A stretch of DNA of 64,000 bases, from the NCBI GenBank assembly GCA_965263205.1, contig CBDHHF010000026.1, positions 155,486-219,485 of the forward strand, written 5' to 3'. The number at the start of each line of letters is the position of its first letter. The stretch's first letter is position 1. The notes below the pieces were generated by a model, which was given only the letters and a program-made list of their open reading frames with translations, searched no databases and was not told the origin of the DNA. This stretch comes from Rhodothermales bacterium (lineage in GTDB: Bacteria > Bacteroidota > Rhodothermia > Rhodothermales > JAHQVL01). The position numbers and the translations under genes are program-made. This document shows, in pieces, positions 2,855 to 33,056 of the stretch.

Positions 2855-3613
2855 ATGCTAGAGATCAAAAATCTCCGCGTTTCGATAGAAGACGAGAACA
2901 AAGAAATTCTTAAAGGCCTGAACCTCACGGTCAATGCCGGCGAAGTGCACGCCATCATGGGCCCAAATGGCTCCGGTAAAAGTACCCTGGCCTCTGTCCT
3001 GGCTGGTCGCGATGGCTATGAAGTGACTGAAGGCTCTGTGACTTTCCAGGATGATGATTTGCTAGAACTGGAAGCTGACGAACGCGCCCTCGAAGGACTC
3101 TTCCTCGCATTTCAGTACCCTGTTGAACTGCCCGGCGTCAGCATGTCCAACTTCCTCAAGCAGGCCATCAACGCACAGCGCGAACACCGTGGCGAAGAGC
3201 CCATCACGGCGATGGAATTCCTGAAACTGCTCAAGGAAAAGGCAGAAATGGTACATCTCGACCCTAACCTGAAAAAGCGTTCAGTCAACGAAGGCTTCTC
3301 GGGCGGCGAGAAAAAACGTAATGAAATTTTTCAGATGGCGATCCTCGAACCGAAGCTTGCCATCATGGACGAAACCGACTCAGGTCTCGATATTGATGCC
3401 CTGCGTATCGTTTCAGACGGCGTAAACCAGCTCCGCTCTGATGACCGCGCATTTGTAGTTATCACGCACTACCAGCGCCTTCTCGAATACATCGTGCCCG
3501 ATTTTGTGCACGTACTCGTTGACGGCCGAATCGTTAAATCGGGTGGCAAAGAGCTTGCCCTTGAGCTCGAAGAAAAAGGCTACGACTGGATCAAGGAAGA
3601 AGTCGTTGCTTAA
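2855..3613 (+). CDS. sufC: Fe-S cluster assembly ATPase SufC
   Basis: [31 protein letters not shown]. Confidence 0.97.
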
Positions 3614-3647: not shown

Positions 3648-4976
3648 ATGAGTGTGATATCAGAACAAAAACTTCGCATGGAAGACCGGTTTCAGGCCAT
3701 GTTCGAGCAGCATAACGGACACGCGTTGAATGGTAGCAATGCTACCCTTTCAAACATCCGCCAGCAAGCCATAGAGGACTTCGCCAACGTGGGCCTTCCC
3801 CACCGTAAAACGGAAGCGTGGAAGTACACACCGATTGAAAAGGCCATCAATAAAGCGGTACAGATTCAGCTCCAGCCGGCGAAAAGTGAGTTGGGCGTTG
3901 CAGATCTCGCCCCGTATCAGATTCCAGCGCTCGACGTGTACCGCGTGGTTTTTGTAAATGGCCACATACAGCCAGCACTCGGTGACATCGCCGGCCTGCC
4001 TGAAACGGTTACACTAACGGACCTTTATTCAGCGTCCACTCAGCATGCATCGCTGCTTAACAAGCATTTTGCCCAGCATGCAGATTCAGCGTCAGAAGCA
4101 TTTGTCGCGCTTAACACGGCGTTTGCCAGAGATGGCCTGTTTCTTCACGTACCCGAGCGCGCTGTAGTCGACAAACCGATCCACGTGATTCATTTGTTCG
4201 ACGCCCCCAATGACCAGATGCTGCAGCCGCGCATGCTGTTTGTAGCAGAAGCCGGCAGCCAGGTAAAAGTGATCGAGAGCTACGCTTCGCTCGATTCTGC
4301 CGGCAGCACCTTTGTAAACGGCGTTACGGAATGGGTAGTTGAAACGCGTGCCCACGTCGATCACTACCAGTTGCAGGAATTTGGTACAGCGAGCACCGTT
4401 GTGTCAAACATCCACGCGCGTCAAGACAGTAACAGTTTCTTCAGCACACACACCACGTCACTCAGCGGCAAAATAATCAGAAACAACTTGACCATTGTGC
4501 CTGATGCTGAAGACTGTGAAAGCCACTTGTTTGGCTTTGTGCTGGGTAAAAACGACATGCATGTAGACAACCACACGCTGGTTGATCACCGCAAACCCAA
4601 TTGCTTCAGCAACGAACTCTACAAAAACATCCTTGATGATACCTCAACGGGTGTGTTCAACGGGAAGGTTTTTGTACGCCCAGATGCGCAGAAAATCAAT
4701 GCGTATCAGTCCAACAAAAGCATTACGCTCACGAAGAAGGCTAAAATGTATTCGAAGCCTGAACTTGAGATTTATGCAGATGACGTGCGCTGTAGTCATG
4801 GCGCCACCACCGGGCAGTTAGATGCTGATGCATTGTTTTATCTCAAAGCACGTGGTATTAGCGAAACCCAGGCGCGTTCACTCTTGCTCATGGCATTTGC
4901 CCGTGATGTAATTGACAACATCAAAATTGAGCCGCTGCGCGCGTTTGTTGACGAGAAAATTGCTGCGCGTCTGTAG
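3648..4976 (+). CDS. sufD: Fe-S cluster assembly protein SufD
   Basis: EAWKYT, KPELEIYADDVRCSHGAT; start placed at MSVISEQ. Confidence 0.95.
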   Translation: MSVISEQKLRMEDRFQAMFEQHNGHALNGSNATLSNIRQQAIEDFANVGLPHRKTEAWKYTPIEKAINKAVQIQLQPAKSELGVADLAPYQIPALDVYRVVFVNGHIQPALGDIAGLPETVTLTDLYSASTQHASLLNKHFAQHADSASEAFVALNTAFARDGLFLHVPERAVVDKPIHVIHLFDAPNDQMLQPRMLFVAEAGSQVKVIESYASLDSAGSTFVNGVTEWVVETRAHVDHYQLQEFGTASTVVSNIHARQDSNSFFSTHTTSLSGKIIRNNLTIVPDAEDCESHLFGFVLGKNDMHVDNHTLVDHRKPNCFSNELYKNILDDTSTGVFNGKVFVRPDAQKINAYQSNKSITLTKKAKMYSKPELEIYADDVRCSHGATTGQLDADALFYLKARGISETQARSLLLMAFARDVIDNIKIEPLRAFVDEKIAARL

Positions 4977-7166: not shown

Positions 7167-8696
7167 ATGTATACGCATACCATCGCCATAGCAAAATGCC
7201 TGATGACGGAAGGCCGGATCGCTGACGTTGATCAGATGATCAGTCCGCTCGTTGCTGCAGTTTCAGGAGACAAGAAGCGTACGTCTGAAGCGCTCTTCCT
7301 GAAGTGTTTGCTTGCGCAGGCCCGTTTATTTGGCGGCGCATCGCCGGCGGCGGTATTGGAATTGTTTGCTGACGAAGCAGATCTGCAAACTACGGACACC
7401 ACCAAAGCCTTTGAATCTGCCATTGCTTCACTTTCGATTGGCATGGCGCTCGTGATGCCCGACGAAGCGACGCAGGATTTGCCGCGTGCACTACATCTCT
7501 TCAGAAACGCTGAAGACGTCCTGCTAGAGATCAATCGAAGCGATTACCTGCACTGGGCTTATTTGGGTGAAGCAACTGCCCTTCTGTTTCTGGGTGAACA
7601 GACAGAAGCGGAGGCGCGCATTGACCGGGCAGCCGCCTGTTTAGAAGCTGTTACAGATACCATTGCTACAAAGTGGCTGCAGTGCCTGAACGATCGCTCT
7701 CCCGACAGCTTGCCGGCAATTCATGCATGCCTTGCCTCCCTGGAAAGCATGCACGCAGCACACCGTCCAGTACCCGATGATCAACACGTATTCATTAGTG
7801 GTGTGATGCAGGACCTCATGCTCGATTGCCGGCTAGCGGCAGAGGGCACGGCTCCAATCTTAATTCAAGGTGAGCCGGGTGCCGGCAAAGAAACAACAGC
7901 CCGCCTGATCCACGCACTACAGGCCAAGCCTGGTGATGTATTTCTCCACATCGACTGCGCAAGTCCTGCCGATTCATGGGAAGCGGTAGATGCGTGTTTG
8001 TGTGCCCCGCAACCGGATCCTGCGGTAAATACAACGCTGTTTCTTAACCACATCGAGCGCCTGTCATTGCAGCAGCAGAAAACGCTGATCAACTACTTCC
8101 GGTGCATGGATGAACGCACATCTGACGGCACCAGTACCGTACGTATCATCAGTGCTTCTTCTACGAAGCTCGAAAGTCTTGTACAGTCTGGAGATTTTGA
8201 CGCAGCGCTTTTCCTGAGGCTCAAAATTTGCATGATAGAAATTCCTCCGCTTCGTATGCGAAAGCAGGATATCCCTGTGCTGGCACTGCACTTTAGCAAA
8301 ACACTTAAGCCGGCTGGTGTGTCGCGCGTGGCGATTACGGAAAAAGCATTAACGGCTTTGCTGACCTACGACTGGCCCGGCAACATCCGCCAGTTAAAAA
8401 ACGAGATCGAACGGATTCTCGTTCACATAAGCATCGACCCCTTGCCCACGATTGATGTACGTAGTCTTTCCAAAGCCATCAAACATAAAAAGAACCAGCG
8501 CTGGCTTACAAAGGACATGGGCAACGAAGCGGAATATCCGCTCGAAGAAATATTACACGATACCGAGCGAACCATTATCGAGCGCGTGCTCGAGAAATAC
8601 CAGGGACAGGTTTCGTCTGCTGCCCGTGCGCTTGGTCTGACCCGACAGGGACTCTACAAAAAACTGAAACGATTAGGCATCAATCTGACCAAATAG
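7167..8696 (+). CDS. NtrC/Fis-type AAA+ transcriptional regulator, degenerate
   Basis: Walker A GEPGAGKET, WPGNIRQL and C-terminal Fis HTH; no GAFTGA loop; Walker B reads LFLNHI. Confidence 0.8.
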   Translation: MYTHTIAIAKCLMTEGRIADVDQMISPLVAAVSGDKKRTSEALFLKCLLAQARLFGGASPAAVLELFADEADLQTTDTTKAFESAIASLSIGMALVMPDEATQDLPRALHLFRNAEDVLLEINRSDYLHWAYLGEATALLFLGEQTEAEARIDRAAACLEAVTDTIATKWLQCLNDRSPDSLPAIHACLASLESMHAAHRPVPDDQHVFISGVMQDLMLDCRLAAEGTAPILIQGEPGAGKETTARLIHALQAKPGDVFLHIDCASPADSWEAVDACLCAPQPDPAVNTTLFLNHIERLSLQQQKTLINYFRCMDERTSDGTSTVRIISASSTKLESLVQSGDFDAALFLRLKICMIEIPPLRMRKQDIPVLALHFSKTLKPAGVSRVAITEKALTALLTYDWPGNIRQLKNEIERILVHISIDPLPTIDVRSLSKAIKHKKNQRWLTKDMGNEAEYPLEEILHDTERTIIERVLEKYQGQVSSAARALGLTRQGLYKKLKRLGINLTK

Positions 8697-19673: not shown

Positions 19674-21630
19674 CTATTCGTTGTCGAGCTTGAACTCGAA
19701 GAAGAGCGTATACCAGGACTTCACAGGCAAGCCACCAACGCGACCCGGCTCAAAACGCGCACCACGTATCACGCGCATCACTTCAGCATCCAAATCATGG
19801 CGCAGTCCTTTGAGGATTTGCGGGTTGATCATGCGTCCGGTTTCGTCTACAATCATCCGCACGGAAACGCGGCCTTCGATGCCGGCTTCCACAGCTTTTG
19901 GTGGATAACGGAGGCGTGACTGCAGCACTTCCCGTCCGCCCACAAGTACCGGTGCATCTTCGGTATAATTGTAGATGCCGTTGTCGTCAACCATGCCTTC
20001 AGGCAACTGGTTTTCCTCTTTTGCCAGGGCGCTAAGCGTTTCGTTGATTTCTTTTACCTTCTGGGAGGCATACACGTCATCAGGCTTGGCGATGAGGGCC
20101 GAGGTAAAGCTATCGAGTGCGCCAGCGTAGTCTTCTTTCTCAAGCAGCACTTCGCCACGGGTTTTATGGCTCAGATAATCTTCCTCTTTCTTCTGAATCT
20201 GATCGATCAGCGTATCAACTTCGAAGATGGCGTTGCGCGCGATCTGGCTGGTCTCGTTGAACTTAAGTGCTTCCTGGAAAGCCTCTTTGGCTTCTTCGAG
20301 CCGGCCGGCGTCTTTAAGCCGGAAACCCGAACTCATGTAATCCTTATAGCTGGATTCGCGCTGCGCCTGTGCGATACGCCTGTCAATCAATTCGATCCTT
20401 GACAGGGCATAATCATCGTCAGGCTTATAGATCAATGCTTCTTCAAATCTACCTTTGGCTTGCACGAGACTGTTGTTATCAAGCGCAGAATCACCCGCCA
20501 TTTTAAACTGAAGATACTGGCGCTGGGCACGTTCTTGCTCGGCATTCGCCTCGGCTAGCGTGGGTGCCGGCGGTTGCGCTACGCGAACCGGCGCTACCAT
20601 GCGCTGTGTCGCCTCACGAAGCCTTGCATTGGCAAGCGAATCATCAGGACGCACATCAATCACTTTCAGGTACTCTTCACGCGCTTGACGATACAGCAGG
20701 CGGGCTTCAACCGAGTCACCGACCATGTTCAGCGCATCCGCAGCATTCATCACGGAGTCACCACGTGAAATGAACGCCAACGATTCCCGGGCATCTAGCT
20801 CAAGGCGAACCGGTTCGTTGAGATACGCATCTACGTCTTGAATGCGCTGGCGTAGTTCCCGCTTGTCGCCATCACCAATCGTCAAGGCGAGGCTATAGTT
20901 TTCTTTTGCCCGTACAAAGAGTGACCGGGCGTTGTCCCAGTTGTCTGCGGCAAACTCCGTTTCCCCTAGCGTATACAACGAATCGCCTTTCAGGACGGCC
21001 ATTGCATATCCTGTTGTGCTTACGTCAAAATTGTTTGGCTCAACATTTTGCCAGCGTGTGTACATCAAATATGCCAACATGAACGTCGAGCCTACGAGTA
21101 GGCCCAAAATGGCACGCCGTATACCGTTTCCTGAACTTGCCGTTCTCCGCGGAGCGCTGTACTTGCGCTCATGCTCCCATTTTTCCTCTTTCACTGCTGG
21201 CGCAGCCCGGTCGTACACCGCAGGACTGCTTTCCTGGGCTGGCGTCGAGGGCACGGCAACGGGTGTAAACCCTGAGAACGTAGACTCAAACTGATTTCCG
21301 GCGCCGGTATCAAAAATACCGTGTCGATCAGCGAGCGGATCTTCAATAAACTCAGCTGCTATTCCCCCACTGTCGCCCGAACTCTCGCTATCGAGTTGCA
21401 GCTGCTCCATCTGTATCGGCTGGCGCGCCACGGGCATGGCGAGAGGATCATCCGCCATGTCGGCAGCAAAATGTACAGGTTCCTCTGGAATAGGATCAGG
21501 AGGTGGTGTATTTACCCGAGGTGCGGCAACATGCGAGCGCGGGTGAAACGCATCCTGGGCCGGCTCTTCAGGCGGCGGCACGTGTGCCCCCGGCAGGTCA
21601 AAGCCATCCACAAGCATCGCACGAAACGCT
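19674..21630 (-). CDS. C-terminal part of kinase-like fusion: Pro-rich linker, TM, TPR repeats, TonB C-terminal domain
   Basis: TM AILGLLVGSTFMLAYLM; TPR-like repeats; YPPKAVEAGIEGRVSVRMIVDETG and FEPGRVGGLPVK. Confidence 0.85.
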
Positions 21631-22464
21631 TCAATCGACTGGGGGCCGGCGCGTGATGTTCATATCGAGCGCCGCTTTGAGCGCGTTGCGCGTCCCGATC
21701 GAAAGATCAAACGATTGATCGATTTGTGCCGGGACCAGGTCTTCACGAAGCCGCGAAGGGACATCGGGAAGTCGCTGACCTGACAGCATCGTATAAAGTG
21801 TGGCACCACAGCCATACACATCTGACCACGGGCCATGTTTGCCACGGGGCGTGTATTGTTCGGGTGGTGAAAAGCCCGGCTGCTGGAAAGAAACGAGGTT
21901 TTGCGTTTTCTGCGCGAGCAACAGATGCGTCGTTTTGAACGACAGGAGCATGGGCCGGCCCGACTTGGTCAGGTAGATTTTCTCTGGAGAAATGGCACCA
22001 TGCACAAGCCCCTGGGTGTGTCCAGCACGGACACCATCCATGAGCGGCATTAATATCGTAACGGCTGTACGCGGAGACACTTTGCCGCCCTGTTGTTCGA
22101 GGACGTAAGCAAGCGATGCGCCAGCATGGTAGTCGAGGATTCTGTAAACCGTACCGTTTTCGCGGAAGAATTCGCGTTCTTTCACCACGTTAGGATGATC
22201 AATACGGGCACACAATGCGGCTTCCTTGGCAATTTTCTCAAGGCCGTATTGATACATTTCGTCCGCTTCCGGCGCAGTAGGCATCAATCCGACGCCTTTA
22301 GCGTCCCGTTTTGCGATGCCGGCCGGCAGATATTCACGGACAATGACCTGCTCTTCGTTCTCCAGGTCCCAGGCCAGATAGGTCGCTTCGAAAGGACCCA
22401 GGTCTCCCAGGACATTTCTAATAGCAAACCGCTCTTTTAGCACTGTGAGACGTGGCAGCTCCAT
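21631..22464 (-). CDS. Ser/Thr kinase-like (pseudokinase) domain; frameshifted into the downstream ORF at a C5 run near 21643
   Basis: HPNVV, GFSPPEQY, WSDVYGCGATLY retained; catalytic motifs altered; removing one C gives RRPQSIEAFRAMLVD, continuous with 19674..21617. Confidence 0.8.
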   Translation of the reverse strand: MELPRLTVLKERFAIRNVLGDLGPFEATYLAWDLENEEQVIVREYLPAGIAKRDAKGVGLMPTAPEADEMYQYGLEKIAKEAALCARIDHPNVVKEREFFRENGTVYRILDYHAGASLAYVLEQQGGKVSPRTAVTILMPLMDGVRAGHTQGLVHGAISPEKIYLTKSGRPMLLSFKTTHLLLAQKTQNLVSFQQPGFSPPEQYTPRGKHGPWSDVYGCGATLYTMLSGQRLPDVPSRLREDLVPAQIDQSFDLSIGTRNALKAALDMNITRRPPVD

Positions 22465-22795: not shown

Positions 22796-23722
22796 TTACC
22801 CCCTGCGCTCCGCTACGGGGTCGCCGCCGCCCTCCCTGACTCCGTCCTGAACTCGGGCACAACGGAAACCAAGGTCGTTGTACCGGTCGCCAGGGGTGTT
22901 GACGATGCGGCACGCTGCACGCACGTAACGCGCGTCGTCGAGCCAGCTACCACCACGCCTAACCCGGTCGGGGCCCTCTTCTGGCCCCGTTGGATCGAAC
23001 GCGGCCTCACTGCCAAGATCCTCTAACCACCAATCTGCGCACCATTCCCACACATTTCCCAACATATCATATAACCCCCACGGATTAGCCTTCTTTTGGG
23101 CTACCGGGTGCGTTCCCGCTTTACTGTGATCATATTGTTTCTCTGACCAACCTGAAGAATCGGATCCATTGTCCAGGTCAAAATCCACACCGCTGTTCCC
23201 CCCGTACCACGCGATATCATCAAGCACTGGTGCATTGTTTGCTCCTTTGAGGTCAAGGTCGCCGGCATAAGTAGCCGCCACGGTACCAGCCCGGCAAGCG
23301 TACTCCCATTGCGCTTCCGTAGGAAGCACCAAACCGAGCCCGGGTATTTCGCCATTCAAGGTGTTGATAAATGCACTGCTATCCTCCCAGCTCACATTCT
23401 CCACTGGGCGATCCGGGCTCTTGAATCTGCTCGGATTATTCCCCATTACGGCTTCCCACAAGCGCTGCGTAACCGGCGTGTCGAACAGCCAGAAACCACG
23501 CGTAAGTGTAACCTGGTGTTGCGTTTCTCGACCATACCGTCCTGCCTCACTTTCCGGAGATCCCATCATGAACTGCCCCGGTGGAATCCATCGCATACGC
23601 TGCTCAACCTCACGGAAACGGAACACAACCCATATTCCGTATTCATCCTGCCCCCAACCAGAGGCCCAATCAGGTGGACATCCTGTGACCAAGGGGTGGC
23701 TTATTTTTTCTTCAAGTATCAT
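22796..23722 (-). CDS. DGR target 1: FGE-sulfatase/C-type lectin-fold protein with C-terminal VR
   Basis: FMMGSP, LPTEAQWEYACRAG, NPWGLYDMLGNVWEWC, RGGSW...GFRC; start MILEEK; no signal peptide. Confidence 0.93.
   Translation of the reverse strand: MILEEKISHPLVTGCPPDWASGWGQDEYGIWVVFRFREVEQRMRWIPPGQFMMGSPESEAGRYGRETQHQVTLTRGFWLFDTPVTQRLWEAVMGNNPSRFKSPDRPVENVSWEDSSAFINTLNGEIPGLGLVLPTEAQWEYACRAGTVAATYAGDLDLKGANNAPVLDDIAWYGGNSGVDFDLDNGSDSSGWSEKQYDHSKAGTHPVAQKKANPWGLYDMLGNVWEWCADWWLEDLGSEAAFDPTGPEEGPDRVRRGGSWLDDARYVRAACRIVNTPGDRYNDLGFRCARVQDGVREGGGDPVAERRG
22852..22976 (-). repeat. DGR variable region VR1
   Basis: 125-nt ungapped match to TR with 14 mismatches, all at TR adenines (T on + strand). 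Confidence 0.95.
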
Positions 23723-23735
23723 CGCGTTGCGAAAA

Positions 23736-23785
23736 AGGCTGTTCCGGTGAGTTTTCTCTCGATGGATACTCACACACCGGAAGCC
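23736..23785 (-). other. Stem-loop in the spacer downstream of TR (candidate DGR RNA structure)
   Basis: Minus strand GGCTTCCGGTG-TG-TGAGT ... ACTCACCGGAACAGCC can pair. Confidence 0.55.
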
Positions 23786-23858
23786 GATTGCTGTTTGCCG
23801 CACAAAGCGGACAGGATAAAGACCGGTTCAGGAAAGAAGCATCCACTCCATGCATGAG

Positions 23859-23983
23859 CTCGGGCACAACGGAAACCAAGGTTGTTGTTCCGGTTGCCAG
23901 GGGTGTTGTTGTTGCGGTACGCTGCACGCACGTTACGCGCGTTGTTGTTCCAGCTACCACCACGCCTAACCCGGTTGGTGCCC
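23859..23983 (-). ncRNA. DGR template repeat (TR)
   Basis: Would read [41 protein letters not shown]; 12 AAC codons; 22 nt downstream of the RT stop; three copies elsewhere differ at its adenines. Confidence 0.95.
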
Positions 23984-24004: not shown

Positions 24005-25018
24005 TTAAACCTCTTCTGTAAAACAAAAGTTTTGCGCGTGAACGCCCTGCCTGAAGGATACTGCATCAGCATGCGCCGTGACAGAAAAGGCTGCCGCGTA
24101 GCCGAGCTGCAACTTAGACGCGTCAATCCAGCCTTGCTGAAAGGCATTTTCCCATTTTTTCCAGGCTTTTTTATACCGCTTTTTTCTGCGCCGGCTCAAA
24201 TGAATGGCGCCGGGCAAAACCCGGAAACCGCAAAAGGGCAAGCCGTATCGGCTACGCTGTATACGCGGGTAATTTTTGATCTCCAGGGCGAGGTTTTGAA
24301 AGAGAAAGCCGCTTGCCTTATCGAGCGTATCTCTGGCCGCTTGCTTATCCTTACACCACCATACGACGTCGTCCATGTAGCGCACAAATCCTGAAACTTT
24401 GCACGTTTCCAGCAAGAACCTGTCTAGGCCCGTCAGATAGTAGTTTGCAAAGTTTTGAGACGTTAATGCCCCGATAGGCAGTCCACAACCGGGTTGAACA
24501 TGATAACTATCGATGATTCGGTTGCAAAGGCGAAGCATGCCCCGATTCTTCAGCTTCCTTGCCAGCAGCATTTTGAGAATTTCATGGTCGATACTGTCAA
24601 AATAGCGCGAAATGTCTATTTGCACGTACCAGGGAAAACGCTGTAGATGATGCTGCGCCCGCTTGACTGCGCGCACAGCGCCTTTGTTTTTCCTGCACGC
24701 ATAACTATCGAAAATTGCAGCGCGCTCCAGTATGGGGCCGATGTGATATATAAGCGCATGATGCAGCACACGCTCGCGAAATGACGGTGCACTAATTTCC
24801 CGCGGCTTCGGATCATAAACCCGAAAAGTATTGAACGCTCCCAGATCTAACGTCTCATGTAAGATATCGTGGGAAAGCCTGTGTAGCTCCTGCTCCAGAT
24901 TCGCCTCAAACTGCTTTACTTCCAGGCGATCACGTTTACCGCGCGCTGCACGCCAGAACGCATAGTTTAGCGTGTTGTAATCGGCCACTTCTGCCAGGCT
25001 GACGGCGCTCCTTTTCAT
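24005..25018 (-). CDS. DGR reverse transcriptase
   Basis: [40 protein letters not shown] (DGR-type GxxxSQ), RYMDD; 337 aa with no maturase or endonuclease domain. Confidence 0.95.
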
Positions 25019-25509
25019 GTTGGCACACCATCCCTTACGGGCACACCATCCGTTACTGGCTGCAATTTCTCTTGTTCTGCCTCTATCAGCTTCAGAAACG
25101 GATCTCCGTACTTTTCCACCCTCGTAGATCCGATGCCCTTGATTTTACCAAGCTGGGCTTTGCTTTTCACCTGCTGCCTCACCATCTCAGCCAGTTGTTC
25201 GTTGGTAAACAGCGCATACGCCGGCACGCCCTCCTTTTCTGCCATGTCTTTGCGCAATGCTCTCAACACCGCGTACATCTTAAAATCCTGCTCACTCAAA
25301 ACTTCTTTATAATCAATCTTACCCTTTCGAACAGGCGCCTTTTCGCTCATTTCCGTCCAGGTGACACAAAAAGTCCACGCGCTATCCAGCCCGGCATCTA
25401 CAAAGCGTTTCTCCACAGAAACAATGCGATGGCCGCTCAGAAAGCTATTCAGTTCATGTTCAAGGCTTGGGTCGCCGTGAATGGGGATGGTAAAAATGCG
25501 AATTTTCAT
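25015..25509 (-). CDS. HRDC-domain DGR accessory protein
   Basis: LRALRKDMAEKEGVPAYALFTNEQLAEM...IKGIGSTRVEKYG; GGAGG RBS before MKIRIF; 4-nt overlap with RT. Confidence 0.88.
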   Translation of the reverse strand: MKIRIFTIPIHGDPSLEHELNSFLSGHRIVSVEKRFVDAGLDSAWTFCVTWTEMSEKAPVRKGKIDYKEVLSEQDFKMYAVLRALRKDMAEKEGVPAYALFTNEQLAEMVRQQVKSKAQLGKIKGIGSTRVEKYGDPFLKLIEAEQEKLQPVTDGVPVRDGVPT

Positions 25510-25581
25510 GGCTTCCTCCCTCGGCGGCTTGCTCCCCTGCGCTCCGCTACGGGGCCGCCGCCTTCCCGACTCCGTCCTGAA

Positions 25582-25710
25582 CTCGGGCACAACGGAAACC
25601 AAGGTGGATGTACCGGTTGCCAGGGGTGTAGGCGCTCGCGGTACGCTGCACGCACGTCAGTACGCGCGTCGTTGAACCAGCTACCACCACGCCTAACCCG
25701 GTCGGTGCCC
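25582..25710 (-). repeat. DGR variable region VR2 (C-terminal FGE domain of the large target)
   Basis: Matches TR with about 11 substitutions at TR adenines plus 1-nt and 3-nt insertions. Confidence 0.9.
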
Positions 25711-26632
25711 TCTTCTGGCCCAGTCGGATCGACAACCATGTTGTCGCCTAGATCTTCCGTCCACCTATCTGCGCACCATTCCCATACATTACCCAGCATG
25801 TCGTACAGACCCCACGGATTCGGCTGCTTTGCGGCTACCGGGTGCGTTCCTGCTCTACTGTGATCGTATTGTTTCTGTCGACCAATCTGAAGAGTCGTAT
25901 CCATCTTCTAGTTCAAAATCTACACCGCTATTTCCCCCGTACCACGCGATATCATCAAGCACTGGTGCATTGTTTGCTCCTTTCAAATCAAGTTCGCCGG
26001 CATAAGTGGCCTCTTGTGTGCCCGCCCGGCAAGCGTATTCCCATTGTGCTTCGGTTGGCAGCACCAAACCAAGTCCAGGCATTTCGCCATTCAACCTCTC
26101 GATAAACGCAGTTGCTGTCATCCCAGTTCACCTGCTCCACCGGGCGATGCGGACTTTTGAATCTGCTCGGATTATTCCCCATTACGGCTTCCCACAAGCG
26201 CTGCGTAACCGGCGTGTCGAACAACCAGAAACCACGCGTAAGTGTAACCTGGTGTTGCGTTTCTCGACCATACCGTCCTGCCTCACTTTCCGGAGATCCC
26301 ATCATGAACTGGCCCGGCGGAATCCAGCGCATACGCTGCTCAACTTCACGAATACGAAACGAGGACCAGAGTCCGAATCGATCCCGCCCCACAGCATCAG
26401 CCCAATCGGGTTTCGTCATAGAGGAAAGCGTCAGCATGCCCTGGTCAGATTGCAATTGGATGCGCCGGCCCTGCGGCACGGCAAGCGAAATAGGCTGTTC
26501 GGGTTGGATCGTGTATTTGGTGCCGTGTTATTTCAAAGCGGGCCGGTTCGCCGGCTGCGGGAGCTTCGATCGGCTCCGCATCCGCTCCGCCGTCTCCGCC
26601 CGCAGGCTTCCTGTAGCTCATGCTTTCCTGAA

Positions 26633-26760
26633 CTCGGGCACAACGGAAACCAAGGAGGCTGCTCCGGTAGCCAGGGGTGTTGAAGTGGCTGCGGTACGCT
26701 GCACGCACGAAACGCGCGCCGTTGATCCAGCTACCACCACGCCCAACCCGGTTGGTGCCC
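26633..26760 (-). repeat. DGR variable region VR3 (internal FGE domain)
   Basis: Matches TR with about 14-15 substitutions at TR adenines and one extra NNC codon in an AAC run. Confidence 0.9.
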
Positions 26761-29154
26761 TCTTCTGGCCCAGTCGGATCGACAACCATGTTGTCGCCTA
26801 GATCTTGCGCCCACCAATCTGCGCACCATTCATCGACGTTGCCCAACATGTCGTACAGTCCCCACGGATTGGCCTTCTTTTGGGCTACCGGGTGCGTTTG
26901 GCTATCGCTGTTGGGACCATACCAAGCAATATCGTTTAGCACGTTCAACTCCTTCTCATATTCCAAATCACCGGCCCAAGTGGCCCATGTGGTTCCTGCA
27001 CGGCAGGCGTACTCCCATTGCGCTTCAGTGGGAAGTTGACTAAATTCGAGGCCCGGCATTTCGGCTATTCAACTTTTCTATAAATGCATTGGCATCCTCC
27101 CAGCTCACCTGCTCCACGGGCCTGTCAGCGCCTTTAAAGTTACTCGGATTTTCGCCCATCACGGCTTGCCAGAGTGCCTGGGTAACTGGCGTATCAAAAA
27201 GCCAATATCCCCGTGTCAGGACAACCTCGTGCTGCCTGCTCATCGCTCCCATCTGCCGATTTCCGTTTCAGGTGAGCCCATAGTAAACTGGCCCGGCTCG
27301 ATGTAGCGCAATCGCTGCTTTACATTTCCATATTCTAACGTAGCAGCGACACCATACTCGTCCTGCTCAAACGAGGCTGCCCAGGCGGGGCGGGTCATGT
27401 GCTCTCTGAATTGCCGGCCTGTTGCGGCATCTATCGCAACAGTAACGAGGTACCCTTCGGATGCACTCATTTCTTCTCCAACGGCATGCAGAAACGGCCT
27501 TGTCGAGCGTAGTAAAGCTACAGGAGATGCTGTATTTAATGCTGTTGTGGGAAGCTGTTGCGCTAGTTCCTTGATCGTAAACGTATCACCCGTCTGGTAA
27601 ATGGACCAGACGCGTTCGGGGCCGGCGTCGCCGTCTCGCCGCGGGTCGTAGCCGGCGGCGGTTTCAACCATGATGTCAGTCTTGTAAACCAGCGCATCTG
27701 TCTGCTGCAATTCTTGGCTCAATTCAGGCGTATTTCTCCATAACCCTGCGTTGAAATGTGCGTCCGCGTCTTGAAGCGTTTGAACCAGGCATACATCGCC
27801 GCTACATAACTCGGATCTACCTGGGCTTCCGAGCTACGCAACGTTTGCGCGATCTTGCGCAGGTCTTCAATTGCAGCACGCCTTTCATCCTCCGGAAACT
27901 GCTTCAGATCCTCTGCAGGCAGATTGAGCAGCTCTTCATACCAGATTTCTTTGGGGAGTGATTTATGCCATTGCTGAATGGCTTCATAGATTTTCCACCT
28001 GAGCGCGTCATCTTCTTGACCAAATCGCTCGCGCAACTCCTGCAGGGCATCCGGAGATATGGTGAGCGCTACGGATGATCCACTGGCGATATCGGGGTGC
28101 GACCAGACATCCGATTCTGTGCCTGCATCCGCCTCGCCCGGAGGCAACAGCCTTCGAATGGTACGCAGCAGGCCCGGTTCTACCCGGCTGGCATAAGAAA
28201 CCAGGCTCAACAGGCGTTCCGCACGTTTGGTAAGCTCGTCTCCGCTCCTGCTGTTCTCCGCAGTTGCTGATCGCTCCCAGTGCGCCATTTTGCAGGCAAC
28301 ACGTAATGGAACCGGCCACCGGCTTACCGGGGCGGGGACCATAGCCACCAACCTTCCGCCGGCTGCTTCCATGTTCTGCGCCAGATGGTACCACGCACGC
28401 ATGAGGGGTTTGTATCCTGTCAGACCGCCGCAATCTCCCAACACGAGTGTCGTTTCCGAGATGGTGATTTTCTTGCTGCGTCGTCGCCCCTTCCCCATGG
28501 GCATCGGATTGATCAACCCGTCGAAAACCCGGAACTCGTGCACGTTGTTTTTGCCCAGCCAGTGTTTAAGCCGGCGAATCACTTTGTCCTGGTCCTGCCA
28601 GAAAGGCGTTAATCGACGGCTACGGTCAACGATTACGTTGAGCCGGCGTGGCCAGCGTTTCCGATTCCGGAACGGAAGCGTGCGGGGCATACGGCCGCGA
28701 CACATATCACGAACCAGTACATCCACGTCCAGATTTCGACTCTGGGCGTCCTGAACGAGCAGCCGCGCGACCCGACGTTGCAAACGCGGCCAGGTAGCCA
28801 GCACCGGAGTTTCAGGCGTGAGCATTTCTCCAACAGGCGTGCGCTCCGTGAGCTCTGACATGGTGTAGGCTATCACTGGTTGCGGCGGCGGCTCTCGCTC
28901 ATCTTCCTCTCTAGACGGCTCGAATGCCTCAGCAAAGAAAAACGGCAGCGGCGCCCAGTCTAAACGCGACACCTGTGGTTCGAATGGTTCTGGCTCCTTC
29001 TCCACCTCAGTACGTTCCTCGCTCATGTGCTGCTCTTCAGCACTTTTCCCTTTAGGGCGTGCAACAACGTAATAGCCGGCGAGGTCGGCCAGTAAATCTT
29101 CTCGTTCGCCGGTTGCCAGCATTCGAACCAGGTCTGCGCGTCCACAAAGCGGCA

Positions 29155-30108
29155 TCAGGCCTCCGGGTGTTTCTTGAGCATGAATTGCTGGATACGCTCG
29201 AGCAAGTCAAGCTGCGTGTCTTTGGTTTTCGCCTGCTCGGTCACCGCCCGTACCAGATCCAGATACTCAGCCAGACCGGGCGCAGCCAGATCCATACGCC
29301 GCCAATACTCGCGATCTTTGCGAACCTGTCTGGCGGCTTCGTCGAGCACGTTTTTATCCACGTCTGGAAAGTGTTTTTCACCGCGACGCACCAGGAATTG
29401 CTCCAACGCTTCGCCTTCCTCCAGTTTCAGATGCAACACGAGACAGCGGCGTAAAAAGGCATCCGGCAGGGCCCGCTCTTCGTTGGTCGTGATTACAACA
29501 AGCAGGGGTTTGTCGCTTCTTTCGACGGCCTCATTAATGCCGGCTGGTTGAAAACGGCCGCTGCCAAAAGCTTCGAGTAAGCCATTGGGAAGGTCGACAT
29601 CAGCTTTGTCTATCTCATCAATGAGCAACACACACCCATTCTGCGGCTCGCCGCCATCCTGTTGCAACGGCGGTTCTACCCCAACCATTTCTGCCTGTTT
29701 TAGCGCCGAGTTCCAGTCAAATGCCCACCAGATTGGACCCGGGTGAATAAAATTCTTTTCAGCGAGTAAGGCACGTACCTCTTTTTCGTCTTCCTTTTTC
29801 AGTACGGCGGCGATTTGTGCTTCACCCAAACGGGTGACGGCATCCAACCGGTAGAGCAGATCAACAGCTTCGCTTCGGGCATCGATTGTGCAGGGAATGA
29901 GACCCCACCCCAGCGCCTTTGCCGCGGCCCGCGCCAGCTGCGTTTTCCCCGTCCCGGGCTCTCCACGTACCAACAAAGGCCGTCGAGCCGCAATGGCTGC
30001 GTTGACCGCGTCGATGGAATCCTGGTCGAAGACGTGCACCTGCTCAGGCGCATTGCCAACAACAGGCAGGTCGATGGTTGCGCCATTTTCGATGTTAAGG
30101 TAGATCAT
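29155..30108 (-). CDS. MoxR-family AAA+ ATPase
   Basis: RPLLVRGEPGTGKT, LLIDEIDKAD, ITTNEERALPDAFLRRC. Confidence 0.93.
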   Translation of the reverse strand: MIYLNIENGATIDLPVVGNAPEQVHVFDQDSIDAVNAAIAARRPLLVRGEPGTGKTQLARAAAKALGWGLIPCTIDARSEAVDLLYRLDAVTRLGEAQIAAVLKKEDEKEVRALLAEKNFIHPGPIWWAFDWNSALKQAEMVGVEPPLQQDGGEPQNGCVLLIDEIDKADVDLPNGLLEAFGSGRFQPAGINEAVERSDKPLLVVITTNEERALPDAFLRRCLVLHLKLEEGEALEQFLVRRGEKHFPDVDKNVLDEAARQVRKDREYWRRMDLAAPGLAEYLDLVRAVTEQAKTKDTQLDLLERIQQFMLKKHPEA

Positions 30109-31379
30109 TTTTTAGCCTCCTCTTTCCTGGCTGCCAGTATCGCTCTCAATGGCCTGGCCAGCCTGCGTTCGTCCGGTAGTAGATTCGGATCGTCTTGCAA
30201 AACGACAAATGTAATCTGGGGGTAAACGCTCCTAAGCGTGTCAATTTGCTCCATTTGTTCGCCAATAACCTGCTGATCAAGAATTAAATAGTGACGGTGT
30301 GAATCTTCCCCCCCAAGCTCCTCTGCGATCCATGCCAGTGCATCGTTTATGAGCTGGCGCGAGACGATGATATTTTTGCTTCTATCTTCTGAATCTACAT
30401 ATTTCTCGATCAGGAATTGATCAAAGGCAGCCACCATACCCTGTTTAGGATCGCTGAACCCCATTTCAGGTGGCTCGTCGAGCAAGGAGCGACCCACGGG
30501 CCAGCTGCTACCGTCTAACGGCTCGCGATACAGGGCAGGACGCTTGCCCACCGCCGCCATAACAATCTCTGCAACCGTTTTGGTTTTTACTGGAAGCTGC
30601 ACAAAGGTGCTATTCATCAGCTCAGCATGCACAGAATCAACAGTATCCTGATCGTAGAGTATTGGTAACATAACATTGAGTACCTGCTGCAAATTGCCCA
30701 GGCTATGTTCATCGTCGGCAGCAATAGCCTTGAATACTTTAAACGCGATTTTCTCAAAAACACCAATCTCCGTTTGCCAGAGCCGGTCGACAATTTTTTC
30801 AACGCGCTGGGTCGGATCGGCGACGTTCAATTCCGCCCCAAAGGCTGCGGCGAGATTCTCAGCAGAAGCAAGCAAGTCGATGACCTCAGCCAGGGCACTA
30901 CCGTCGTTAGAGATTTTCCCCATCTGGCTATTCTGCCACTGCTGCAAAGCCCCTTCAACATCTTCTACAAGCTTGACCCATATAGCATCACGTTCTCCAG
31001 GTCTTTGATCCCTTAACGGGCGTGTAGGATTGTTGACTGACATGAACCTTGCGAGTTCAGACTGCTTAAAACGGCATGTTGACACGATCACTGGCAAAAT
31101 TACAACGCCGCGATCCTTGCTAGCATCCAGAAGTGCAGGCAATTCATATCGATAGATATAATCGGAAGCAAGGAAGCCAGGACTAACCAATAAGATAGCC
31201 ACACAACAGTCATTCAAAGCAGCTAAAATCTCTTCATGCCACTCCTGGCCGGCCTGTATCCGCGTGTCATCCCAGACATCAATATCTTCCGTCCGAATAA
31301 CAGGCTTTAGATGCGTCTGTAATTCACCTAAATACCTTTTGTCGTTATGACTGTAACTAATGAATACTTTTTTCGCCAT
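30105..31379 (-). CDS. TIR-domain protein with uncharacterised C-terminal region (third component of the MoxR-vWA system)
   Basis: VFISYSHND, WDDTRIQAGQEW..EI, LLVSPGFLASDYIYRYEL; 4-nt overlap with the MoxR gene. Confidence 0.88.
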   Translation of the reverse strand: MAKKVFISYSHNDKRYLGELQTHLKPVIRTEDIDVWDDTRIQAGQEWHEEILAALNDCCVAILLVSPGFLASDYIYRYELPALLDASKDRGVVILPVIVSTCRFKQSELARFMSVNNPTRPLRDQRPGERDAIWVKLVEDVEGALQQWQNSQMGKISNDGSALAEVIDLLASAENLAAAFGAELNVADPTQRVEKIVDRLWQTEIGVFEKIAFKVFKAIAADDEHSLGNLQQVLNVMLPILYDQDTVDSVHAELMNSTFVQLPVKTKTVAEIVMAAVGKRPALYREPLDGSSWPVGRSLLDEPPEMGFSDPKQGMVAAFDQFLIEKYVDSEDRSKNIIVSRQLINDALAWIAEELGGEDSHRHYLILDQQVIGEQMEQIDTLRSVYPQITFVVLQDDPNLLPDERRLARPLRAILAARKEEAKK

Positions 31380-32018: not shown

Positions 32019-33056
32019 ATGGACATATTTATTTCGCACGCTAGCGAAGACAAGGATGATTTTGTGAGGCCGCTCGCTAATGAACTTAGAAGGAGAGGGG
32101 TTCAGGTGTGGTATGATGAGTATTCATTGACGATAGGTGATCGACTCCGCCATTCGATAGTAAAAGGATTACAAACATCGAGATTTGGTGTCGTCATTTT
32201 TAGCAAGCATTTCTTCAGGAAGAAGTGGCCACAGCTAGAACTAGACGGCTTAGTCACACTGGAAGAGGATCGAAGAAAAGTAATATTACCAGTATGGCAC
32301 GGCGTATCCTTTGACGAAGTGGCAGCATTCTCGCCAATATTAGCAGATAGAATTGCAATTAGCTCAGAACTTGGTATCCAAACCGTTGCAGATAAAATAG
32401 AACAAGTATTACGAAATGAAGAGTCCCACAATCATGATTTAAATCAGTCTTCCTCAGTTACCCCAAAAGATCATGCCCCAACGTCTACAAATCGGAAGGC
32501 AGTACTGCTCTGGGGACTGGTTATAGCCTCAATGGTCACAGGATTGTTATTCCTGCAAAGTTTTAACAAAAGAGGCCCAAAAGAATCTGATTTAAGCTGG
32601 TCTTTGATTTCAGACGGGGAAATAATGGGCCGAGTAACGCAGTATGGTGGAGGTGGTAAAAACTTCAGCGGTATTGCATACCGTTATGATGAAGTGGAAT
32701 TCCAGGTTACCAATACGAGCAAAAAAGACTTACAGTTGAGCGCTTTGGCTTTTTGGGCTACTGCGAATGACAGTGTGATTGCCAGTGGAAATACTCGTAT
32801 AGAAAGAGAAATTTCGAAGATCCAGCCAGGTCAATCAGAGTTATTCCTGGAATCTATTCCTATTCACAGAGTAGATGAACACCCAGAATTCAATCGCTTT
32901 CTACTTGACTACAGATTAGAAGCGGGTGACTCCCACATAGCTGATTTTGGCGCAATTGCGTTATACTTGTTGTATGTAAATGAAGTGGGCAAGCGGGACT
33001 CTATTCAATTAAGTAATCGTCTCTTGAATAATATAGAGATTCCTCTAGAATTTTGA
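32019..33056 (+). CDS. TIR domain - transmembrane helix - extracytoplasmic domain protein
   Basis: DIFISHASEDKDDFVRPLA, WYDEY, KKWPQLELDGL; TM AVLLWGLVIASMVTGLLFL. Confidence 0.87.
   Translation: MDIFISHASEDKDDFVRPLANELRRRGVQVWYDEYSLTIGDRLRHSIVKGLQTSRFGVVIFSKHFFRKKWPQLELDGLVTLEEDRRKVILPVWHGVSFDEVAAFSPILADRIAISSELGIQTVADKIEQVLRNEESHNHDLNQSSSVTPKDHAPTSTNRKAVLLWGLVIASMVTGLLFLQSFNKRGPKESDLSWSLISDGEIMGRVTQYGGGGKNFSGIAYRYDEVEFQVTNTSKKDLQLSALAFWATANDSVIASGNTRIEREISKIQPGQSELFLESIPIHRVDEHPEFNRFLLDYRLEAGDSHIADFGAIALYLLYVNEVGKRDSIQLSNRLLNNIEIPLEF

Follow-up and report, generated by a model that had tools for sequence, protein, structure and literature searches.

Introduction

Target genes with more than one variable repeat (VR) are already known among the diversity-generating retroelements (DGRs). 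Doré et al. 2024 (PNAS, PMC10907252) describe DGR targets with several VRs and, in MoxR/VMAP systems, a single target that combines a vWA domain with three tandem VR-bearing lectin domains. Clade 5A of the same paper, to which Thiorhodococcus drewsii is assigned, has a long target directly preceded by a gene for a MoxR-like ATPase; no domain is predicted in the N-terminal extension of this target, and a short lectin-only target is found as well, with TIR genes nearby. In a 2024 survey, 87% of VRs are at the end of the gene, and four targets have two VRs and three targets have three (PMC11661182); the survey of Wu et al. likewise puts most VRs at the gene end and reports internal ones mainly from Ig-type targets (PMC5758913). 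Here we analyse a stretch of 64,000 nucleotides from a Rhodothermales bacterium (assembly GCA_965263205.1, contig CBDHHF010000026.1, positions 155,486 to 219,485), referred to below as the window, in which two FGE/C-type-lectin domains lie in tandem on the minus strand, each ending in a VR. The best explanation of the region is that it represents the long target gene of an HRDC-type DGR within a MoxR-associated conflict or defence operon.

The two-headed design itself is not new, because Doré et al. already describe both this organisation and tandem VR-bearing lectin targets, and multi-VR targets are in print in the other 2024 survey too (PMC10907252, PMC11661182). The additions made here are modest: the size of the family of two-domain targets, an intact example verified against its own template repeat (TR), a vWA-like fold for the N-terminal part, and recurrent length changes at an AAC run. 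Positions are those of the window and all features are on its minus strand unless stated otherwise.

Variable and template repeats

The TR lies at 23855..23983. The internal repeat, VR_A, occupies 26629..26760, and the repeat at the end of the second domain, VR_B, occupies 25578..25710 and has one of the breaks described below inside it; a third, VR1 (22848-22976), belongs to a separate short FGE target. Each was aligned to the TR over 121 positions, comprising 30 TR adenines and 91 other sites. Mismatches fall on 13 of the adenines in VR1, 11 in VR_B and 14 in VR_A, and on none of the 91 other sites in any of the three except for one boundary C>T, the same C>T at which homology to the TR ends in every case. 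The probability that the mismatches of a VR would be placed on adenines by chance is 2e-10 for VR_A and 4e-8 for VR_B, and is also given as 1e-9 to 4e-8 for the three VRs. VR_A, VR_B and VR1 are all copies of one TR that differ from it only at TR adenines, and the initial annotation was right to see two VRs in tandem FGE domains, one of them internal.

Each VR spans the last ~40 residues of a PF03781 match. The 22-nt end common to the VRs and the TR is present in four exact copies in the window, where none is expected, and these are the only copies in the whole 6.5-Mb genome. Remote DGR targets were considered and rejected, all four genomic copies of the VR end falling in the window.

The VRs also differ from the TR in length. 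VR_A has three extra letters, in frame, at the AAC run, while VR_B has four, made up of a 3-letter in-frame insertion and a single frame-shifting letter; this last letter (+1) sits at the TR AAC run, at the same site as the three of VR_A. Wu et al. 2018 report TR/VR length differences in 25 of 372 DGRs; 11 of these are frame-shifting, and AAC is the adjoining sequence in 74% (PMC5758913). When the 3' flanks were folded and compared with shuffles, z was -2.5 for VR_B, -1.9 for VR_A and -0.5 for VR1, so that only the VR_B flank is significant. A short GC-rich motif recurs by eye in the three flanks, with folds not clearly better than those of shuffles.

Homologous long targets

Species genomes were scanned with the C-terminal half of the first FGE domain (domain A), which returned 80 loci. 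Among 122 FGE-bearing open frames, drawn from these loci, from 10 further loci and from an 11-kb excerpt of the window, 13 have at least two complete FGE ends. At four loci all eight pieces of the window gene, among them p478, the 478-aa open frame (27719..29155) that forms its N-terminal part, fall in the same order along a single frame of 1130-1348 aa. These are L023, from an Isosphaeraceae metagenome-assembled genome (MAG; 1191 aa), L013, from a Pirellulales MAG (1185 aa), L031, from a Methylococcaceae MAG (1130 aa, open at its 5' end), and L044 (1348 aa). L030 is colinear likewise as far as its contig reaches. Further single frames are those of the proteins P0002 (1184 aa), P0003 (1189 aa) and P0044 of Thiorhodococcus drewsii AZ1, which has 1204 aa with two FGE ends and is 33% identical to p478. 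The p478 frame corresponds colinearly to residues 19-471 of the L023 frame, which measures 1193 codons from stop to stop, and in the relatives the p478 part is fused to the part downstream. The frameshift-aware alignment to homologs that the initial annotation had suggested points to one polypeptide, the window pieces being colinear with single open frames.

A protein database search with p478, restricted to longer proteins, gave 80 matches, all of which contain PF03781; 46 of these fused homologs have two FGE ends, 31 have one and three have none. The 46 two-domain members among the 80 homologs found would constitute a further family of sensors with two independently hypermutated heads, which is spread over Planctomycetota, Proteobacteria and others.

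L023 is the most informative of these loci. Its gene order is that of the window, with a MoxR-like ATPase, the 1191-aa target, HRDC, reverse transcriptase (RT), TR and a short FGE gene. Its TR differs from the three VRs by 13, 16 and 14 mismatches at adenine sites and by none elsewhere except a boundary letter; for the internal VR there are 13 A-site mismatches and no non-A mismatch apart from one boundary C>T. Both VRs of the long target (3230-3452 and 4337-4559) lie within the intact frame. An internal VR inside an intact frame is genuine in this family of long targets, since the TR of L023 matches its VRs with mismatches at adenines only. With an intact frame and both VRs matched to the TR, L023 is a better experimental object than the window copy. 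A GC-rich hairpin of 6 bp with a 3-nt loop follows all three of its VRs (3420-3510, 4510-4600 and 7286-7376), and the one after the internal VR falls inside the coding linker. In the genomes of L013, L031 and L044 no TR was found, only three VR-like copies, and other RT loci in the L031 genome do not match the L031 VRs. The internal copies of L031 and L044, which are not TR-verified, vary at the same codons as the terminal copies.

The closest relative of the window protein is P0001, which has 916 aa, is 75% identical and is contiguous across the junction between p478 and the spacer that follows it. Within its own VR_A, immediately past ...VRAAYR, it departs from the FGE frame, at the AAC-run site where VR_A and VR_B of the window change in length. 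Its tail matches the third frame of the window first and the frame of domain A later, with a change of register near 26530-26536; such a change would fit a P0001 contig without the extra letter that the window has at ~26528. Other searches returned more distant sequences. In a metagenome scan p478 matched a single distant locus, L092 (29% identity). Short proteins that would show an intact junction between pieces B2 and B3 of the second domain were also sought, with four matches at 59-78% identity, none of them identical. A search with piece B1 found the short target of the window and unrelated short FGE proteins, but not domain B of the P0001 contig. The tandem FGE genes of a genus relative (G001) were set aside, as these are separate TIR-FGE genes and not orthologs.

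Taken as a whole, the alignments support an ancestral gene that would have encoded one protein of ~1,200 residues, with a vWA-like part, a spacer, domain A with its VR, a linker of ~70 residues and domain B with its VR. The initial annotation had proposed a two-VR protein of about this length. The architecture is indeed that of single frames in the homologs, but the copy in the window is not intact, as it carries eight insertions.

Interruptions in the window copy

Downstream of p478, ~2.2 kb of FGE-sulfatase-like sequence (27758-25550) is split over many short frames. Frameshift-aware protein-to-DNA alignment against the closest homologs, which places breaks to within about ten letters, resolves eight insertion events (nine letters) at seven junctions between 27760 and 25635, and the same set of breaks emerges from tblastn with the short target and from a DNA alignment between the three paralogous domains. 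Every one of the eight events adds letters to the window, deletions are absent, and the pieces are free of in-frame stops. The longest frame that crosses the broken region as assembled has at most 207 codons, whereas reading through the breaks gives ~466 + 407 + 325 = 1198 codons. In the window as assembled, no uninterrupted gene holds two or more VRs of one TR. The initial annotation had supposed that one shift would restore the frame, an estimate that falls well short of the eight events, and it serves as a warning that a frame described as restored by one shift can conceal many more breaks.

Break 1 (+2, 27759..27760) separates p478 from the spacer and was placed by alignment to P0001, which is contiguous here. 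Piece A1 (27243..27758), the spacer with the start of domain A, is 74% identical to residues 466-636 of P0001. Breaks 2 and 3, +1 at ~27248 and +1 at ~27235, lie ~13 nt apart (27235..27248, from the frameshift-aware alignment) and lead into piece A2 (27043..27267), the middle of domain A, which has a Pfam FGE-sulfatase match of 5.3e-07 and corresponds to residues 637-697 of L023. Break 4 (+1, ~27060), seen in both the domain DNA alignment and the frameshift-aware alignment, is followed by piece A3 (26448..27068), which contains the C-terminal half of domain A, VR_A and the first half of the linker and has a Pfam FGE-sulfatase match of 2.1e-31 over profile positions 111-255.

The frame of this piece, 27068..26448, reads ...GFRCARVQESMSYRKPAGGDGGADAEP..., stays open for 60 codons past the VR and ends at the TGA 26447-26445. 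The other frame, 26527..25991, reads ...TIQPEQPISLAVPQGRRIQLQSDQGMLTL... and continues into the second FGE-sulfatase domain. Both frames are exactly as the initial annotation quoted them when it noted a frame open past the VR into a linker and a second frame entering a second FGE domain. The interdomain linker (26411..26627, ~72 codons) has break 5 (+1, ~26528) in it according to the frameshift-aware alignment, and also contains the TGA, which is followed by 7 nt and the ATG at 26437.

Piece B1 (25991..26527) holds the second half of the linker and the start of domain B, and is 71% identical to residues 874-1008 of P0003. Breaks 6 (+1, 26110..26119) and 7 (+1, 25878..25879), both placed by the domain DNA alignment and the frameshift-aware alignment, flank piece B2 (25858..26127), the middle of domain B, which was delimited by tblastn, the Pfam scan and mapping to L023. 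Piece B3 (25509..25907) is the C-terminal part of domain B up to the break in VR_B, with a Pfam FGE-sulfatase match of 3.1e-19. Break 8, +1 inside VR_B at the AAC run, was placed at ~25635-25637 by the frameshift-aware alignment, and piece B4 (25550..25747) carries the end of domain B (...GFRCARVQDGVGKAAAP, then a stop).

Origin of the interruptions

On balance we favour the view that the eight breaks are artefacts or unfixed variants. Most of the insertions, we think, are consensus errors or variants that have not become fixed, and the population would therefore hold an intact or nearly intact gene. The 41 other window ORFs that were scanned look whole; 35 of them have Pfam matches and no domain was seen to be split between neighbouring frames. 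Further evidence comes from a public sequencing run, X1, which holds 0.40 of the window's words and was compared at an allowed likeness of 85%, a level at which some rows come from paralogs. Five contig pieces of X1 have at most one other letter relative to the window. The two of these near-identical pieces that span a break (25727-25925 and 25954-26186) have exactly one gap each, the position of the gap in the second not being listed, and the three that span no break, or only the edge of the linker, have none. Letter 25879 is missing from both of the covering contigs (depth 4.4 of 4.4), one of which is otherwise identical, and a more divergent contig (16 other letters, four gaps) is without the letter at 27236. 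A gap at 25635 is an example of a row from a paralog, as its contig joins 26360 to 25578 in the way that the region of the VR1 gene and TR would.

Several observations weigh against this view. The breaks are confined to 3.6 kb and the ~60 kb around them are clean, which also fits the decay of one gene. Depth in the X1 contigs is only ~2, at which a single difference may be an error. The contigs that cover 26872-27800 are gapped and 5-9% different from the window; given this divergence and the share of words, X1 may hold another strain. The searches gave no intact copy that is nearly identical, P0001 at 75% coming closest, nor any identical short fragment. Even P0001, the closest relative, loses its frame inside VR_A. 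Because the short target and p478 are both intact, the system could run on the short target alone.

A rival explanation, which we consider possible though doubtful, runs as follows: the insertions are real, the long two-headed target is a decaying pseudogene, and the DGR keeps serving the short target through VR1. On this account the DGR may go on rewriting dead VRs, which need only their cis elements, and continued retrohoming into the dead gene would maintain VR changes at adenine sites only. It fits the restriction of the breaks to the long target, with neighbouring genes whole, and the presence of p478 homologs in one of 61 related genomes (G000 itself, the 60 others having none), as for an island gene that is patchily distributed and dispensable. 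Stops or partial matches also occur in other FGE-bearing frames of G000, and degenerate DGR loci have been reported in Thiohalocapsa (PMC10907252). Against it, eight of eight events are insertions, with neither a deletion nor a nonsense change in ~1,200 codons, and two of the insertions are ~13 nt apart. Decay of bacterial genes is expected to lean towards deletions. The X1 contigs that are without the extra letters at 25879 and 27236 also speak against decay. The insertion in VR_B may well have arisen by true RT slippage at the AAC run, whether the breaks are artefacts or the gene is a pseudogene.

It is highly improbable that the region consists of two separate genes by design, with domain A and a 60-residue tail ending at the TGA 26447-26445 and domain B starting at the ATG 26437. 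The layout of TGA, 7 nt and ATG is present, the residues directly after this ATG occupy the same alignment positions as the beginning of the short target (ATG 23722), and many relatives have separate short FGE-only targets. However, the homology between the frame of domain B and the in-frame linkers of P0002 and P0003 does not begin at the ATG but extends 29 codons further upstream, as far as the stop at 26528-26530. Residues 874-1008 of P0003 align from the second residue of that frame, directly after the stop, and the frame of domain A can be traced along P0003 as far as residue 863. The tail of domain A past ~26528 has no homolog in the correct frame and resembles only the out-of-frame tail of P0001, and domain B would still be cut three more times. 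The initial annotation held that a true stop and a start separating the domains in reads and homologs would refute a single polypeptide; P0002 and P0003 read straight through the linker, as do all four of the full-length relatives. Programmed frameshifting was rejected, because the eight shifts have no common motif and the homologs read straight through.

Predicted fold of the N-terminal part

The p478 sequence has no Pfam or NCBIfam match. An AlphaFold model built from 46 sequences has a mean predicted local confidence (pLDDT) of 84.4, with values above 90 for 296 of the 478 residues. Foldseek with this model returned nothing at E <= 0.001. In VIA-align comparisons residues 167-295 match vWA domains with a Z of 9.8 and a root mean square deviation of 2.9 A over 116 residues, and the vWA domain of NorD, a MoxR partner, is matched at Z 7.5. 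These comparisons give moderate support to a predicted vWA-like core in p478, and only moderate because unrelated Rossmann-like folds reach Z 8. A weak resemblance to the helical region of STAND ATPases (Z 8.2) is seen in the helical C-terminal half of the model (302-461). On this prediction, the N-terminal extension in which such targets otherwise show no predicted domain may be a cryptic vWA-like domain, which would tie these loci more closely to the MoxR-vWA systems.

Gene neighbourhood

All parts of the DGR/MoxR operon, from the TIR gene through the short FGE target, are on the minus strand. The first gene (30105..31379) encodes a TIR-domain protein of 424 aa (Pfam TIR_2 2.4e-14, residues 5-114), which is likely the effector; its C-terminal 300 residues have no Pfam match. 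It is followed by a MoxR-like AAA+ ATPase of 317 aa (29155..30108; Pfam AAA_5 5.3e-10), which the bpMoxR model matches at 0.0025 and 17.4 bits, below its 27-bit cut-off. This ATPase is immediately upstream of the long target, its stop codon ending on the first letter of the target's ATG (29155), and is 48-52% identical to the ATPases directly upstream of the long targets in L023, L013 and L044.

Downstream of the long target, and directly upstream of the RT, is the HRDC-domain accessory gene (25015..25509; 164 aa from its ATG; Pfam HRDC 5.1e-17), which is 48% identical to the HRDC gene of L023. The RT (24005..25018) is intact, with 337 aa and a Pfam RVT_1 match of 1.2e-13, and is 47% identical to that of the L023 cassette; NCBIfam models of group-II-like RTs match it only below their cut-offs. 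Avd was not seen among the ORFs scanned, where no search was aimed at it. The short FGE-only target (22796..23803) lies downstream of the TR and is intact with 308 aa from ATG 23722 (Pfam FGE-sulfatase 3.4e-46).

Other genes adjoin the operon. A second TIR-domain protein of 345 aa (32019-33056, plus strand; TIR_2 2.8e-20) is divergent from it and resembles the C-terminal TIR part of an NCBIfam model for a TIR-bearing anti-phage retron RT (9e-23, below the cut-off). Directly downstream of the short target is a protein-kinase-like ORF of 277 aa (21631-22464; Pkinase 3.9e-17), and further downstream lies a TPR/TonB_C protein of 647 aa (19674-21617). Elsewhere, G000 has 14 FGE-sulfatase matches, several of them at the ends of long frames of 636-990 aa (C39, C14, C34). 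Four look partial or have an internal stop (C14:4004-4609, C39:16246-16872, C39:8760-9128 and C34:27517-27921), and one C39 match has a possible frame change near its C-terminus. The C39 and C14 paralogs, viewed briefly for assembly quality, were too diverged for insertions and deletions to be counted.

Possible mode of action

By analogy with established DGR biology, the RT would copy TR RNA with errors at adenines and the resulting cDNA would replace each VR, so that two putative binding pockets of one sensor would be diversified independently from a single template. The initial annotation spoke of a bispecific receptor, which such a protein might be. Gene neighbourhood and the literature suggest that ligand binding could be signalled to the TIR protein by way of the vWA-like part and then the MoxR-like ATPase.

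One site of the TR shows three independent length changes, namely the three letters of VR_A, the single letter of VR_B and the change of frame in P0001. They hint at an additional possibility, which we consider unlikely, that length changes produced by RT slippage at the AAC run serve as a stochastic switch in sensors with tandem VRs. If the internal VR were shifted out of frame, the distal head would be lost, while a shift in the last VR would alter the tail only. If this were so, a population would mix two-headed, one-headed and silent sensors on top of adenine mutagenesis.

Comparison with known systems

The nearest described counterparts are DGR 4 and DGR 5 of Thiohalocapsa PB-PSB1 (PMC10907252), with which the window was compared by description. 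In these, as in the window, one target gene carries several tandem VR-bearing C-type-lectin domains, and a MoxR-type ATPase system is present with TIR or peptidase effectors nearby. They differ in that their targets are described with a recognisable N-terminal vWA domain and three tandem lectin domains, whereas the window target has two lectin domains and an N-terminal part that has no Pfam match and is vWA-like by predicted fold only. Clade 5A, as represented by Thiohalocapsa DGR 8 and T. drewsii, is alike in its upstream MoxR-like ATPase, its N-terminal extension without a predicted domain, its short target and its adjacent TIR genes; however, both DGR 8 and T. drewsii are described with a helix-turn-helix gene where the window has its TIR gene. 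The cassette itself resembles the HRDC-type cassettes of Architecture C of Wu et al. 2018 (PMC5758913), such as the Treponema DGR, in which the HRDC gene adjoins the RT and TR, mutagenesis is A-to-N, and differences in length between TR and VR occur next to AAC runs. What sets the window apart from Architecture C is that one TR serves three VRs, two of which are inside one ancestral gene.

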